From: an uncultured delta proteobacterium
GTDB lineage: Bacteria; Myxococcota_A; Polyangia; Polyangiales; B10-G4
DNA: 64,000 nucleotides
Assembly (NCBI GenBank): GCA_963727445.1
Contig: CAVSGI010000027.1
Coordinates: forward strand, 64,001 to 128,000
Direction: 5' to 3'
The notes under the pieces are model-generated. The model saw only the letters and a program-made list of their open reading frames with translations. It did not search any database and was not told the origin of the DNA. Shown here in pieces: positions 34,421-42,780 of the stretch (positions are counted from its first letter, which is position 1; each line of letters begins with the position of its first letter). The position numbers and the translations under genes are program-made.

Positions 34421-34468
34421 CGCCCCCAGAGAATAGCCGCGGCGGCCTTCCCCTGGTGTAATGAACGG

Positions 34469-35962
34469 ATGCAGCGAGTCGTCTTCTTCCTCTTCGCGTC
34501 GGTCGCCCTGCTTCAGGTCGCGGGCTGCGCTTCCGGTACCCGTCACACCGTCGGCGGTGACGGTGGTGACGCCGGGACCCCCGATGCGAGCCCCGACGCC
34601 ATCACGGTCGACAGCAACCTCGTCGACGGCTCGAGCTGTCCGGCAGGCGAGCTCCTCTGCGGCGACACCTGCGCCAACGTCGCCACCGATACGGCGAACT
34701 GTGGCTCTTGCGGTATGGCGTGCGCAGACGGCGACCTCTGCTCCTTCGGCACCTGTGTCCCGCCCTGCATGGCGCCCACGCCGACCTCCTGCGAGGGGAC
34801 CTGCGTCGATCTGATGACCGACGACGCGCACTGCGGCTCCTGCGACAACGCCTGCACGCCCACCGAAGCGTGCGACTCGGGCGCCTGCGTCTCGACCTGC
34901 GAGGCGGGCTTCGTCGGCTGCGGGTCCACCTGCGTCGATACCACCAGCGACCTGATGCATTGCGGCGGCTGCGACATGCCTTGCGCCACGGACGAGCGCT
35001 GCACCGCCGGCATGTGTCGCTCGAGCTGCTCGGACGGAACCGACGGCGCCTTCATGCCCACCGCGGACATGATGCTGACCTCCGGCACCTACCACTACAG
35101 CGAGGTGGTGATCCCGGCCGGGGTGACGATCACCGTCGCCGGGGACGTGCCGCTGATCATCACCGCCGACTCGGTGACCATCGGCGGCACACTCAATCTC
35201 TCCGGCGCCGACGGCCTCGACAGCGTGAGCGGCGGCGCCACCCTCCCCGACGGCGGCGACGCGGGCCCTGGCGGCGGTGGCGGCGGCGGCGGGGGAAGCT
35301 GCGGCAATGGCAGCGGCGCCGGCGGCAGCCCCAACGGCGGCGACCCCATCGTGTCCTCGGGCTCCAACACCCACGGCGGTCCTGGCGGCGCTGCTCAGGG
35401 GAGCGTCGCCGCGGTCTCCACCGGCGGTGGTTGGGGTCCGGGCGGCGGCGGCGGGGGCGGCGGCGCGAGCGCAGCGGGGACCGCGGGCGATCGCGTCGAC
35501 ACCACCTACGGCATCGGCGGCGCGCTCTTCAGCGACGCGATGATGACCCTCTTCACCGGCGGCGGGGGCGGCGCCGGGGGCGGCGCGAACGGCGGCGGTG
35601 GTGGCGGCGGCGGCGGCGCCACGCGGATCGACGCCGACACCATCACAGTCGAAGCGACCGGGGTCATCGACGTCAGCGGCGGGGGCGGCGGCGGCAAGAC
35701 CGGCGGCTCCTGCACCTCGGGCGGCGGCGGGGGCGGCGGCGGCGGCATAATCTGGCTCGAGGCCGCAGTCCTGACAATCGATGGCTCGCTCCTCGCCGCT
35801 GGCGGCGGCGTGAAGCCGCTGGACTCGGCCGCAGGCCTCAACGCGGCAGGCGGCGCGGGCGCCGACGGACGCATTCAGCTCTCGAGCCCGGACCTCACGA
35901 TGACCGGAACCGTCACGCCCGCCGCAGGATTGACGCGGATGGACCTGCCTGTCTGCGACTGA
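34469..35962 (+). CDS. Lipoprotein with Cys-rich (Stig1/MXAN_6577-like) repeats and a glycine-rich domain
   Basis: Lipobox VAGC; three C..D..[NH]CG.C..C repeats; GGGGGG tracts. Confidence 0.8.
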   Translation: MQRVVFFLFASVALLQVAGCASGTRHTVGGDGGDAGTPDASPDAITVDSNLVDGSSCPAGELLCGDTCANVATDTANCGSCGMACADGDLCSFGTCVPPCMAPTPTSCEGTCVDLMTDDAHCGSCDNACTPTEACDSGACVSTCEAGFVGCGSTCVDTTSDLMHCGGCDMPCATDERCTAGMCRSSCSDGTDGAFMPTADMMLTSGTYHYSEVVIPAGVTITVAGDVPLIITADSVTIGGTLNLSGADGLDSVSGGATLPDGGDAGPGGGGGGGGGSCGNGSGAGGSPNGGDPIVSSGSNTHGGPGGAAQGSVAAVSTGGGWGPGGGGGGGGASAAGTAGDRVDTTYGIGGALFSDAMMTLFTGGGGGAGGGANGGGGGGGGGATRIDADTITVEATGVIDVSGGGGGGKTGGSCTSGGGGGGGGGIIWLEAAVLTIDGSLLAAGGGVKPLDSAAGLNAAGGAGADGRIQLSSPDLTMTGTVTPAAGLTRMDLPVCD

Positions 35963-38312: not shown

Positions 38313-39540
38313 GTGAACTGGGGGACGGCCTATACGAAGTGGCTTCGTCGTCGCGGCGTGGCCATCGCGGACATCGGCATTCACGTGCGAGTGGCCTCGC
38401 GCATCATGGCCGAGGTCGGCAACGACACGGTGGCGCCGAAGCACGTGGACGATGCCCGGGCGGAGGCGATCCGGCGCGGCTCGACCCCCGAGCAGCTCGA
38501 CTCCTTCGACGCGCTGGCCGGCGTGTTCATGGAGTTCAACGCCGATCCCCACGCGTACGAGGAGCCCGAGCCGGCGCCCGAAATCGACCTCGGCCCGATG
38601 GAGGAGGCCACGGATCAGATCGACCTCGGTCCGATGGAGTCGGGGTCGGCGGCCGCGACGGGAACCGAGACGCAGACAGAGACAGAGTCGGCTTCGGAAA
38701 CGGAGACGGACACGGAGTCGGAGACGGACGCGGCCCCGGAGACGGCTTCCGAGGCGGAGATGAACACGGCCGCGGAGACGGCTTCGGAGACGGAGACGGC
38801 CGCGGAGACGGCGGCGGCCGACGCGTCGCCCTCTCCCCACGCGGCGCGATCCTGTCGCTACTGCGGCGGCCCGGTCGCCATCGACTACAGCCAAGAGCGC
38901 CTCCTCATCGCGCTCGGCGTAGGGACGCTCCTCAGCGTGGCTCTCGGCTTCTTCCTCGGCACGCTCGGCACGGTCGCGCTGATCCTCCTCTGCGCCGCCG
39001 GCGCGGCCGGCGCGGGCGCGGCGCTGGTCGCCCATCGTTGCGAATCGTGCCGACGCGTGGTGGACACGAGGCGGCTCAAGACCGCGGAGGTCGCCCTGGT
39101 CGCGGCCACACGGAGGCGCTTCCGCGGTCTTGCGGCCGGCGCCGCGGTGGCGGGTGCGGCGATGGGCGTCGCGGGGGTGGTCGTCGCGGCGAACGCGGTG
39201 GACCCGCGGGACGCGCTCTTGTCGAACGCGGTCGAGACGGTCGCACACCGCATCGCATCGGATCAAACGCTTCGCGAGGAGAGCCTTCGCTACGACCCGG
39301 AGCTCGTGAACGAGTCCGTGATCATGACCTTCTTCAGCGACGATTACGCGGCGCACGCACCGCGCCCGCCCGACGGCATCGGGATTCTGCCGCTTCCCCC
39401 CCGAACGACCGTTCTGCGTCGTGGTGCGGGCGGGACAGGATGCCCACCGCATCCTTGTCGAAGGCTACGGCGCCAATCGCGAGACCATCGTCGCCCACCA
39501 GCAGCTGGAGGTCCTGCCCCCCGAGCGGCCAGCCGACTGA
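38313..39540 (+). CDS. Hypothetical membrane protein with acidic linker and LITAF-like Zn motif; frameshift at the C7 run 39396-39402
   Basis: After the C run another frame reads PERPFCVVVRAGQDAHRILVEGY... with good codon usage to TGA at 39538-39540. Confidence 0.6.
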
Positions 39541-39612
39541 GCGCACGAAACGCGTGCGTGTTCCGCACGAATCGCCTCGTGGCCGCCGCGCCTCGCGACC
39601 ATCGTGAGGGCC

Positions 39613-40122
39613 ATGACACGCATCACGGCCCTGGCAGCGCTTCCGCTGCTCCTCGCCTGCGCGGGCGACGCCGAAACGGCGCCGACCGAGCTCGTCTTCG
39701 AAGCCGCCGCCCCGTCCGGAGCAAGCGCCGTCTACCTCGACGGCACGCTCGACGAGGCGGGGCTGACCCTCCAGCTGTGGGTGCGGGACGCCGGCGACGT
39801 CTTCGGCGTCGCCGCCCACCTGATCCACGAGACCCCCGCCCGAGAGGTCGTCGCCGACCGGCCCCTCGGCTCCGACGACGAGGCCCTGCACCTGGTCGTC
39901 GACGCCCCGGGCGACCTCTCGGTTGGGGGCACTCGGCTCGCGCCCTCCCTCGGAGACGTGTCGATGGACGGCCCCACCCGGCTGGCCACGCTGACGCTCC
40001 CACCGCCGAGCGGCCCCACCACCTTCGCCGTGGAACGCATCACCATCCGGCGGAGCGACGGCACTTTCGTGCCGACTTCGGGCTACGGCGCCGCGGTGGT
40101 GGAGAGGGCGGTGTCCCGATGA
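39613..40122 (+). CDS. Lipoprotein with cohesin-like domain
   Basis: Lipobox LLAC; LTLQLWVRDAGDVFGVAAHL...LSVGGTRL...DGPTRLATLTL. Confidence 0.62.
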   Translation: MTRITALAALPLLLACAGDAETAPTELVFEAAAPSGASAVYLDGTLDEAGLTLQLWVRDAGDVFGVAAHLIHETPAREVVADRPLGSDDEALHLVVDAPGDLSVGGTRLAPSLGDVSMDGPTRLATLTLPPPSGPTTFAVERITIRRSDGTFVPTSGYGAAVVERAVSR

Positions 40123-41846
40123 AGCGCGCCCTGCCCTTGGCCTTGCTCTCGATAGCGGCCGTCCCGGCCACGGCGTCGGCGCAGATGGACGTGGTCGAGC
40201 AGGCGGTGACCGTGGACGTGACCGGAGAGCTCGAGATCGTGATTGACGCGACGGTCGCGCTCACCGCAGCGACGAGCACCCTCTACCTCTCCGCGTTCCT
40301 CACGGACGCCCAACAGATCACGGTGGACGGCGAGCCCGCCACGCTCACGCCCTACCCCGACTTTCCGCAGTACGCCTCCGTCGTCACTCTTCCGGTGGCC
40401 CGGGACGCGGGCGAAACGCTCGCCTTTCACGTCGTCCTGCGCGGCGCTCCACACTGCAATGTAGGCGCGCCCCCCGGCGCCGCGTGGTGCTGGCATTCGG
40501 AGCGCGAGACGATCCTCCCAGGCGGCGGCGCCGGACACGCGTGGTATCTCGAGAATCTCATCGAGAGCGATCCCTTCACCGGCCACATCGAGGTGCTGGC
40601 CCCGACGGGCCACGAGGTCCGCGCCGCACAGAACGCGCCGACCGAAGTGAGCACCGAAGGCGCGGTCACGCGGACGCGCTTCGAGATCTCGCGCCCCACC
40701 ACGCTGGTGCCGCTCTATGCAGGGGACGCCTCCGTCGCGAGCGGCGAGGGCTTCGACTTCGACGTCCTCTACCATCCCGAGCGGGACGACGCGGCGAAGG
40801 TCGCGCGGATGGCGCAGCTCGGCGCCGAGGTCTACCCCCTCTACGGCGAGCTCTTCGGTGTGCTGCCCACCGACCGCGCGCAGGTGGTTCTGGTACCGCG
40901 GACCTTCGGTGCAGGGGGCATGGGGCTCATGGGCAATCCGTTCATCGCCGAGTACGTGGTCGGCGACTACGACTACCTCCTGGTCCAGGGCACGGCGCAC
41001 GAGCTCGCGCACTCGTGGTGGGCGGGGGTCGCGTCGGCACCCGACCCGGTGGAGGCGCCCTTCCTTCAGGAAGGGTTCGCCGAGTACTCCGCGTGGCTGG
41101 CGCTCGGCGACCTCTACGGCGCCCAGACCCGCCTCTCGGGCAACCGAATGAACGCCACCTTCTACATGTATCGCCGCCCCGACGGCGTCGATGTCGCCAT
41201 CCTCGATCCGAGCGGCGCCGATTCCCCGGCGTATCTCCACGCCATGTACCACAAGGGCTCCCAGGTGTTGCGCATGCTCGAGGCGCGCGTGGGGCGCGAC
41301 GCTTTTCTCGACGCCCTGGTCGGGCTCGTCGCGCGCGGACCGAACGAGCTGTCGGTGCGCGCGCTCCACGACGAGCTCTTGCGGGCGAGCGGTGAGGACC
41401 TCGCCCCGATCATGGATCAGTGGCTGCGCGGCACCGGCTATCCGGTCCTGACCGCGAGCGCCACCGACCTCGCGGTGGACGGGGACTGGCTGCTTCGCGT
41501 CACGGTGCGCGACACCTGGGGCGACGGTCGGGTCGTCGAGGAGAGCGTCGACCTCACCACCGGTACCGCCCCCCTCGACCCCCATCCCGAGGCCGTGCTG
41601 CGCGAGATCGATCCGGCGTGGACCTTCGCCCGCGAGGTGCGCCCCGCGACGCCTGGGGACGTGACCTTCGACGGGACGGTGGACGCCGCCGATCTGATCG
41701 CCGTCGCGCTGAGGAGCGGCACCGAGCTCCCCGTGGAGCGGCGGCGCGATGGGGGCTACGACCCGCTCTTCGATCTCGATGGCGACTTCCGCGTGGATCG
41801 GGCGGACGTGATGGCGGCGGCAGCGCGCGCGACCGCCGCACCTTAG
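40119..41846 (+). CDS. Secreted M1-family zinc metallopeptidase with C-terminal dockerin-like domain
   Basis: Signal ending ASA-Q; HELAH-x19-E(GFAEY); YHKG; GDVTFDGTVDAADL and DLDGDFRVDRADV Ca-loops. Confidence 0.85.
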   Translation: MKRALPLALLSIAAVPATASAQMDVVEQAVTVDVTGELEIVIDATVALTAATSTLYLSAFLTDAQQITVDGEPATLTPYPDFPQYASVVTLPVARDAGETLAFHVVLRGAPHCNVGAPPGAAWCWHSERETILPGGGAGHAWYLENLIESDPFTGHIEVLAPTGHEVRAAQNAPTEVSTEGAVTRTRFEISRPTTLVPLYAGDASVASGEGFDFDVLYHPERDDAAKVARMAQLGAEVYPLYGELFGVLPTDRAQVVLVPRTFGAGGMGLMGNPFIAEYVVGDYDYLLVQGTAHELAHSWWAGVASAPDPVEAPFLQEGFAEYSAWLALGDLYGAQTRLSGNRMNATFYMYRRPDGVDVAILDPSGADSPAYLHAMYHKGSQVLRMLEARVGRDAFLDALVGLVARGPNELSVRALHDELLRASGEDLAPIMDQWLRGTGYPVLTASATDLAVDGDWLLRVTVRDTWGDGRVVEESVDLTTGTAPLDPHPEAVLREIDPAWTFAREVRPATPGDVTFDGTVDAADLIAVALRSGTELPVERRRDGGYDPLFDLDGDFRVDRADVMAAAARATAAP

Positions 41847-41857
41847 GCGGCCGTTAG

Positions 41858-41891
41858 CGGATGCACGCCTCGCCCGCCGGGCGTGCATCCG
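41858..41891. terminator. GC-rich hairpin after the peptidase gene (12-bp perfect stem, 10-nt loop, no U-tract)
   Basis: cggatgcacgcc at 41858-41869 / ggcgtgcatccg at 41880-41891. Confidence 0.5.
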
Positions 41892-41955: not shown

Positions 41956-42780
41956 ATGAACGAGCTGGCGCTGTCCACGAGCCCCACGCCGACCCTGGCC
42001 CTCCGCCGCTGGTCCCGCCCCGACGGCCCAGCCCGCGCATACCCAGAGAACGCCCATCCCACCTGGGAGGTCGCTCGGGTGACCCGGGGCCTCGCCCGCT
42101 ACGACGCCGGCCGCGCACATTTCGATGTCGGGCCGGGCGCCACCATCCTGGTCCCCGCCGAGGTCGGCCACGTGACGACCTTCGAAGGCGCCGCCGTCGC
42201 CACCTCGCTTCAGATCTCAGCGGCACGCTTCGAGGGGATCGCCCGGGCCGCGCATCTCGACCCCTCCGGCGACCCGATGGTCTTCGCGCCGAGCGACGCG
42301 CGCGCCGAGCGGCTGGACCGCCTCTTTCAGCTCATCTCCGACGAGGTCGCGCGCGCAGACGCGGGCAGCGCGCTCGCGATCGACGCGCTCGGTGAAGCGT
42401 TGGTCGTCGAGGCCCTGCGGGGAAGCGAGCGCGCGACCGAACGCCTCGATCTCGACCCGCGGATCGCGCGGGCCATCGAGCTGGTGCAGTCGTGCTTCGC
42501 CGATCCGCTCTCCGTCGACGACCTCGCGCGCGCGGCCGCGATGAGCCGCTTCCACTTCAGCCGCTGCTTTCGCGCGCAGGTCGGCCTCAGCCCCTATCAG
42601 TACGTGCAGAAGATCCGTGTCGAGCGCGCGGCGCTCATGCTGAGCCGTGGCCGAACGGTCTCGCAAGCCGCGCTCGACGTCGGCTTCTCGGATCTCAGCC
42701 GCTTCGCGCGCGCCTTCCGGCGTCACCTCGGTTGCACGCCCAACGAATGGGCGAGTCGCGAAGACAGGCGATGCGCCTGA
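41956..42780 (+). CDS. AraC family transcriptional regulator
   Basis: Cupin N-terminus (AHPTWE); LSVDDLARAAAMSRFHFSRCF; VGFSDLSRFARAFRR. Confidence 0.92.
   Translation: MNELALSTSPTPTLALRRWSRPDGPARAYPENAHPTWEVARVTRGLARYDAGRAHFDVGPGATILVPAEVGHVTTFEGAAVATSLQISAARFEGIARAAHLDPSGDPMVFAPSDARAERLDRLFQLISDEVARADAGSALAIDALGEALVVEALRGSERATERLDLDPRIARAIELVQSCFADPLSVDDLARAAAMSRFHFSRCFRAQVGLSPYQYVQKIRVERAALMLSRGRTVSQAALDVGFSDLSRFARAFRRHLGCTPNEWASREDRRCA

Follow-up and report, generated by a model that had tools for sequence, protein, structure and literature searches.

A 64,000-nt stretch of the genome of an uncultured delta proteobacterium (contig CAVSGI010000027.1, positions 64,001 to 128,000; the window hereafter) carries two overlapping genes that we consider likely to encode a one-to-one membrane tether for a peptidase. 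The first product is a predicted lipoprotein with a single cohesin domain, the second is a predicted secreted M1-fold peptidase ending in a dockerin, and the pair would be switched by an AraC-family regulator acting through a repeat upstream of the operon. The two genes are arranged as follows.

39613..40122, + strand: gene 1 (P0001), a 169-aa predicted lipoprotein with Cys16 (39658-39660), a short linker and one cohesin domain (approximately residues 25-167)
40119..41846, + strand: gene 2 (P0002), a 575-aa predicted secreted M1-fold zinc metallopeptidase with domains I-III and a dockerin, without the helical domain IV

The stop codon of gene 1 and the start codon of gene 2 share the sequence ATGA at 40119-40122. 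Judged by eye, the N-terminus of the gene 1 product is of the lipobox type (LLLA-C16), and residues 1-21 of the gene 2 product constitute a signal peptide. A 1177-aa open reading frame (ORF) fusing the region was rejected as a read-through, the third-position GC over gene 1 being 0.91 in the frame of gene 1 versus 0.56 in that of the long ORF. The original prediction, made from the letters alone, had described the ATGA overlap, a cohesin-like lipoprotein, a secreted HExxH peptidase with a duplicated dockerin signature at its C-terminus and a spurious fusion ORF; all of these were recovered, the last over gene 1. Absent from it were the altered exopeptidase motif, the missing lid domain and the co-conserved AraC gene with its likely operator. 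The checks that it had proposed, namely profile searches, modeling of the fold and of the complex, synteny and a genome census, were run and are reported below.

The gene 1 product as a cohesin

By its fold, the gene 1 product is a predicted cohesin. The structure model, built with 76 aligned homologues (predicted local distance difference test, pLDDT, 94), is all beta and has the cohesin jelly-roll. A wide structural search over 48,161 chains returned cohesins at all of the first 18 ranks (Z 13.4 to 9.6), the top match being 6kgc_A (Z 13.4, root-mean-square deviation 3.1, 129 aligned residues) and the first non-cohesin fold appearing at Z 9.4. The best Foldseek matches were also cohesins (E 2e-6), and an ESM Atlas lead (0.90) pointed to a cluster with Cohesin on 58% of it.

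Searches of the single protein against Pfam and NCBIfam gave nothing informative, and the profile evidence comes from its family. Seventeen of the 61 gene 1 relatives match Pfam Cohesin at E values up to 0.01 (best 1.7e-10), and the profile of the 61-sequence family (alignment A5) matches solved cohesins first (E 1.2e-9). Since neither the cohesin nor the dockerin of the window's proteins reaches its Pfam cut-off, the calls of these two domains rest on structure models and family profiles. The first cohesin alignment (A1), of which 1 of 76 members matched Pfam Cohesin, weakly, was discarded: its matches in the PDB were signal-peptide noise, and its variability made it unsuitable for scanning loci. 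In some relatives the lipoprotein has an extra IPT/TIG domain before the cohesin (L275:3358-4230, L276, and L285).

The gene 2 product as an altered M1 peptidase with a dockerin tail

The gene 2 product matches Pfam Peptidase_M1 over the cut-off (44.9 bits, E 1.4e-11). The elements discussed here are as follows.

40998..41249, + strand: catalytic set, H294-E295-x-x-H298 (40998-41012), E318 (41070-41072) and Y377 (41247-41249)
40914..40928, + strand: GGMGL, in the position of GXMEN, the exopeptidase motif of M1 enzymes (GAMEN in 7v9n, to which it aligns), with the glutamate replaced
41445..41645, + strand: beta-sandwich domain III, approximately residues 443-509, contacting the cohesin in the predicted complex
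41655..41837, + strand: dockerin, residues 513-573, with two Asp-rich loop-helix repeats

The zinc motif reads HELAH(294-298)-x19-E318, and H294, E295, H298, E318, and Y377 are each invariant in the 61 aligned peptidases; the spacing from HExxH to the distal glutamate is 19 residues in gene 2, with a gap at that column in 42 of the 61. The structure model (pLDDT 88) superimposes on IRAP and ERAP1 with a template modeling (TM) score of approximately 0.7 over the query and 0.47 over the target, and the TM score over M1 targets of 850-900 aa is between 0.45 and 0.50. The protein has the HExxH motif, the distal glutamate zinc ligand, the catalytic tyrosine and the fold of an M1 peptidase (gluzincin). 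It departs from the canonical M1 aminopeptidases in two respects. First, the GXMEN glutamate is absent from the whole family, the corresponding column containing glycine in 32, alanine in 17, serine in 12, and glutamate in none of the 61 peptidases. Second, the model ends in domain III and the dockerin, with no helical lid. One source (10.1101/2023.05.30.542994) puts forward the GXMEN glutamate as the residue that binds the N-terminus of the substrate and describes domain IV as closing off the active site in most M1 structures. In the model of gene 2, the dockerin takes the place of this lid domain. Because both the exopeptidase glutamate and domain IV are lost, the gene 2 product is likely an open enzyme and not a strict or ordinary aminopeptidase.

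The tail contains two calcium-type loops (D514-D525 and D552-D563), each followed by a helix in the model (523-531 and 561-573), as in dockerins. D522, D525, D552, and D563 do not vary among the 61 aligned peptidases, and all but one of these also have D514. Pfam Dockerin_1 (PF00404) is matched at E values up to 0.01 by 17 of the 61 family members, L278 having a dockerin over the Pfam cut-off, and the tail profile (A6) matches dockerins of the PDB first (2y3n_B, E 1.6e-7). With respect to the dockerin type, the sequence profiles favor type II and the predicted complex has both helices in contact with the cohesin, but the structural Z values of types I and II are tied within 1.

Conservation of the gene pair

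The pair stays together across many uncultured myxobacteria-type genomes, in agreement with the synteny expected for it. In total, 83 loci, the window included, have a cohesin gene and a peptidase gene side by side, in either order. Scanning with the peptidase alignment left 160 loci, 80 confirmed out of 127 and 80 out of 125. All 16 full-length peptidase orthologues have a cohesin gene directly upstream; among 144 other M1 loci taken as a control, a cohesin was found in only one (L116), which is itself a distant member of the family. The cohesin-side search gave matches in 48 of the 401 genomes of the phylum, and 45 of 47 further, previously uncounted cohesin loci have an adjacent dockerin-tailed peptidase, the remaining two stopping at contig ends. 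The peptidase-side search gave 73 loci above 60 bits in 67 of the 401 genomes. Of 40 loci examined that had not been reached via the cohesin, 12 encode other dockerin proteins and were excluded from the count, and 20 of the 28 with a full peptidase have an adjacent cohesin (two of them weak).

The cohesin gene comes first in 45 and the peptidase gene in 15 of 60 pair loci, and a stop/start overlap is present in 55 of the 60. The trees of the two families, built with FastTree after exclusion of the frameshifted L031 and the truncated L103, have 40 of 58 splits in common, versus 0.2 on average and 3 at most in label shuffles. For 10 homologues the source records gave either no name or "hypothetical protein". 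The distribution is patchy, with no match to the module in the same-genus genome G001 (86% complete). Outside the phylum, one of five genomes was matched, by an unrelated long cohesin-dockerin protein without a peptidase.

Several loci have features of their own. In L031:4561-6732 both genes of the pair are apparently frameshifted, through assembly error or decay. Family f38 (L251:1897-2601, L237:654-2006, L220:5540-6400, and approximately 20 loci) has a divergent gene for an ECF-type sigma factor and a gene for a FecR-domain protein flanking the pair (21 and 20 of 46 loci, respectively), and a radical SAM gene follows the pair in 18 loci; this neighborhood may reflect mere kinship or a signaling link. 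In an unrelated genome, long Pro/Thr linkers are present in the three secreted proteins encoded by L299:359-5600, one of which combines a cohesin at its N-terminus with a dockerin-like motif at its C-terminus.

Predicted complex

The dockerin of gene 2 is predicted to bind the cohesin of gene 1 one-to-one. The modeled complex comprised the cohesin, two calcium ions and, of the peptidase, domain III with the dockerin, domains I and II being outside the model. It scored 0.93 in three runs versus 0.01 for the best control; of 157 solved pairs 116 attain the mark used, as do 2 of 215 mismatched ones. At least 98% of contacts are common to the runs, and the pLDDT of the partners is at least 93. Both dockerin helices and domain III contact the cohesin, and the interface holds 6 of the 15 most conserved cohesin positions (G65 and G105, the top two, as well as A67, H69, R108, and R146). 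The contact of domain III with the cohesin resembles what we take to be the role of the X module in type II X-dockerin pairs.

Two alternatives concern the binding itself. The two proteins might share an operon and a function without mutual binding, the tail being a calcium-binding stabilizer only, as could be argued from the sub-threshold Pfam scores and from the threonine at position 3 of dockerin loop 1 in gene 2. Given that the two partners of an established binding pair are found side by side in 83 loci, in either order, and given the gap between the score of the complex and that of the best control, we regard such an arrangement as very improbable. Alternatively, the cohesin could bind at the position of domain IV as a detachable lid, an activator or an inhibitor guarding the cell from its own peptidase. 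The dockerin does directly follow domain III, at the place of domain IV, the cohesin contacts domain III in the model, and a strict one-to-one coupling of the genes would suit an enzyme and its partner. Nonetheless, domains I and II are outside the complex model, the predicted contacts are all of the kind usual between cohesins and dockerins, and three genomes have a second peptidase that lacks an adjacent cohesin, so that a lid function appears improbable to us and tethering remains the preferred reading of the complex.

Stoichiometry and cellular location

By family profiles, the window's genome (86% complete) encodes one cohesin and one clear dockerin, with neither domain over the Pfam cut-off anywhere in it. 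No scaffoldin with several cohesins was found in this genome, and gene 1 itself has one cohesin domain. The sequence of L300 (G000:C9:236987-237874) suggests a possible second dockerin: near its C-terminus this predicted lipoprotein has a double loop resembling that of dockerins, with a very short spacer and a weak score. A regular-expression search of the genome for double calcium loops returned only repeat proteins, which we take to be Cys-rich or thrombospondin-like. From this census, the pair is best described as a putative one-to-one tether and not a scaffold. The original prediction had spoken of a minimal "peptidosome"; as a multi-enzyme complex this does not agree with the census, in which one cohesin and one clear dockerin are secure and L300 is doubtful.

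In three genomes (G423, G169, and G438) two dockerin-tailed M1 peptidases accompany one cohesin. The second peptidases (L265, L278, and L279) have no adjacent cohesin, and the single cohesin of each genome is located elsewhere; first and second peptidases may share one anchor. Other Myxococcota proteins (L287-L298) have dockerin-like tails with no M1 domain and no cohesin in view, the dockerin-like motif being N-terminal in some of them and situated on repeat proteins in others.

The outer membrane is the default destination of lipoproteins in a two-membrane cell, and its periplasmic face is the usual side. A lipobox-type cysteine was picked by pattern in 56 of 60 gene 1 relatives, three of the picks being the wrong cysteine. 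In Myxococcus xanthus lipoproteins, lysine at +2 directs to the inner membrane and alanine at +7 to the matrix (PMC3222651, the accessible part). Gene 1 has alanine at +2 and threonine at +7, and among the 56 picks lysine at +2 occurs in none and alanine at +7, as counted by eye, in approximately six.

These data bear on the claim that the lipoprotein anchors the peptidase at the surface. Its first half, a membrane tether, is supported by the fold, the co-conservation and the predicted binding; the surface location is not. If displayed on vesicles or on the outside of the cell, the pair could form a minimal complex that degrades peptides and serves feeding or predation; such display would have precedents in the cohesin-dockerin peptidase complexes proposed as extracellular in Planctomycetes and Cloacimonadota (PMC6461901 and PMC8542988, in their available portions). 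Secretin genes over the Pfam cut-off are present in the window's genome and an export route for the pair may exist; the cysteine pair C113/C124 is kept in 59 of the 61 family sequences, and the three genomes with one cohesin and two dockerin peptidases would also suit such a complex. Against these points stand the residues at +7 (threonine in gene 1 and alanine in few relatives), the single cohesin and the lack of a scaffoldin in the window's genome, the lack of any transporter or secretion gene co-conserved with the pair, and the failure to find the module in G001. Nothing bearing on predation was found. We consider surface display unlikely, and a lipid-anchored tether facing the periplasm is the location that we tentatively favor.

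The AraC-family regulator and the upstream repeat

Two further elements surround the pair.

41956..42780, + strand: AraC/XylS-family regulator, 274 aa, with Pfam HTH_18 and AraC_binding and a cupin with invariant His, Glu, and His
39543..39575, + strand: tandem direct repeat GCACGAA(A/T)CGC, copies at 39543-39553 and 39565-39575, 22 bp apart

In 14 of the 15 further loci that belong to the window's clade an AraC homologue adjoins the pair, its side and strand varying between loci. For all 13 homologues tested, the 41956-42780 gene is the best match in the window's genome, and the His, Glu, and His of the cupin are common to the 13. The repeat is tandem in nine, single in three and absent in two of the 14 other upstream regions of the clade, with up to two mismatches allowed. 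When scored with a matrix built without the window's sequence, the window's repeat outscores every other tandem site of the 9.47-Mb genome (37.6 bits versus 20.9 for the next), and no other operon with a strong tandem site, as in a larger regulon, was found in this genome. A linked AraC-family gene and a bipartite direct repeat upstream are what is expected of an operon controlled by the AraC/XylS family.

The binding of MtlR and XylS to bipartite direct repeats is described in the available part of PMC4514859. Like the MtlR-type sites reported there, the window's repeat lies upstream of the target operon and consists of two direct copies separated by approximately two turns of the helix, with a cupin and helix-turn-helix regulator nearby; it differs from them in sequence and is a candidate site. 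The repeat is likely the operator of the linked AraC activator, and co-occurrence suggests that the latter is likely a dedicated activator of the pair. We infer an inducible single-operon regulon around the two genes.

Proposed mechanism and its weighing

In the proposed scheme, the observed gene overlap would couple the translation of the two proteins and yield equal amounts of them, after which both would be exported, and Cys16 of the lipoprotein lipidated, as their signals suggest. The dockerin would fold upon binding calcium, and both of its helices as well as domain III would dock on the cohesin sheet, as in the predicted complex. By default, the lipoprotein might be sorted to the outer membrane, where it would most likely face the periplasm unless exported further. 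Peptides or proteins would be cleaved in an open site without a grip on the free N-terminus, an endopeptidase-type activity that the altered motif and the lost lid make fairly probable. Finally, the operon might be induced by a small effector sensed through the AraC cupin.

Several observations weigh against this scheme or parts of it. With respect to the domains, Pfam Cohesin (PF00963) has no match in gene 1, and Pfam Dockerin_1 gives 12.4 bits on gene 2 versus a cut-off of 22.9. With respect to the complex, the pass may be a memory of solved cohesin-dockerin structures, its calibration is only rough, custom alignments and calcium having been used, and the mean cohesin conservation is barely higher in the interface (0.41) than elsewhere (0.37). 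Eight of the 28 peptidase-side loci have no cohesin in view, five of them being cut by contig ends and three being second copies, and the congruence of the two trees, each obtained with FastTree only, is partly kinship. The AraC gene is next to the pair in none of the 46 loci of other clades, which have shorter flanks, the tandem repeat is absent from all 46, and its core was picked by eye with the window among the sequences. Among the lipobox picks the residue at +2, which bears on location, is mixed (S in 16, G in 14, and D in 12), and no clue to the substrate of gene 2 was found.

A more far-reaching version can be formulated, which we find unlikely as a whole. An M1 lineage would have swapped its exopeptidase motif and lid for a dockerin, and the lipid-anchored cohesin would position and gate an inducible, calcium-switchable two-chain envelope endoprotease, present in approximately one-sixth of the sampled Myxococcota genomes and serving signaling or processing (linked to AraC in one clade and to an ECF sigma factor and FecR in another) and not bulk feeding.

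Relation to known systems

OlpA and OlpC of Clostridium thermocellum are situated in the Gram-positive wall, alongside a complete cellulosome, and hold dockerin-bearing enzymes at the envelope, accepting many of them. Like gene 1, each has a single cohesin of the same fold (PDB 3ul4 and 4dh2; Z 12.0 and 12.6). Unlike them, the window's pair has a predicted lipid anchor, a two-membrane envelope, one co-encoded peptidase and no scaffoldin found. The cohesin and dockerin genes of Archaeoglobus fulgidus are presumably adjacent, and we know of no M1 peptidase linked to that cohesin. Its non-cellulosomal cohesin (PDB 2xdh) has the same fold as gene 1 (Z 12.8). Archaeal cohesin-dockerin pairs are verified binders, and non-cellulosomal modules of both kinds are widespread with an unclear role (PMC9012536, the part available).

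Closer in function are the planctosome (PMC6461901) and the complex of Ca. Stygibacter (PMC8542988), which, in the accessible text of the two papers, are likewise genome-only proposals of non-cellulosomal peptidase tethering by cohesins and dockerins in two-membrane bacteria. They have large multi-domain anchors or scaffoldins and M12B, M14, S8, or C25 peptidases, whereas in the window's pair two genes make up the unit, a 169-aa lipoprotein being matched one-to-one with an M1-fold enzyme, and a regulator is linked to them. RflaF_05439 of Ruminococcus flavefaciens, as far as described in the available parts of PMC3573020 and PMC12484212, is also a peptidase tethered via a beta-module and a dockerin to a surface-anchoring cohesin (ScaE); it is an X-dockerin NlpC/P60 cysteine peptidase of a Gram-positive cellulosome system and not an M1 enzyme. 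Clostridial S8 proteases are also known or proposed to be tethered by cohesin-dockerin pairs (same sources).

On the enzyme side, ERAP1, IRAP, PSA, EryP (7v9n), and M1dr (6a8z) share domains I-III, the zinc ligands and the catalytic tyrosine with gene 2, which differs from the M1 aminopeptidases in having no GXMEN glutamate, no domain IV and a dockerin tail. The two-domain M1dr also has no C-terminal domains, according to the accessible part of its description, and its 474-aa chain matches gene 2 only over domains I-II.

A literature search, in which the available part of 10.1101/2023.11.21.568195 was included, gave no description of a cohesin lipoprotein paired with an M1 dockerin peptidase; most of the subscription literature was beyond reach, and supplementary dockerin tables could list these proteins. 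The anchoring principle is known, and what appears new is the undescribed two-gene form, the altered enzyme and the probably dedicated regulator. The module may have been overlooked because both domains score under the Pfam cut-offs in the window's proteins. The role of cohesin-dockerin pairs outside cellulosomes has long been open because most such genes are without an evident partner; here a two-gene operon shows which partners belong together in more than 80 loci, a small and testable system whose diverged natural pairs could be used for specificity studies or engineering. The pair would also offer a way of anchoring secreted enzymes in bacteria with two membranes, and its enzyme is a natural test of an M1 peptidase without the exopeptidase glutamate and the lid.

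Flanking features

One further element lies between gene 2 and the AraC gene.

41858..41891, + strand: GC-rich hairpin without a U-tract

The hairpin predicted 3' of gene 2 is present and modest (-27.4 kcal/mol, z -2.59; 4 of 200 shuffles equally good); as an intrinsic terminator it was rejected, since it has no U-tract and was not selected by the terminator scan.

The upstream gene (38313-39541, + strand) encodes a protein with an acidic repeat, Cys-pair motifs and membrane segments and with no Pfam match, and is not kept next to the pair in the loci of relatives. Its frame apparently changes near 39400-39440, the likely true end being the stop codon at 39539-39541, and this shift creates the 1177-aa read-through. 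Further upstream in the window, the region 34461-35962 (+ strand) encodes a secreted protein that has Cys-rich repeats and, at its C-terminus, a Gly-rich domain.

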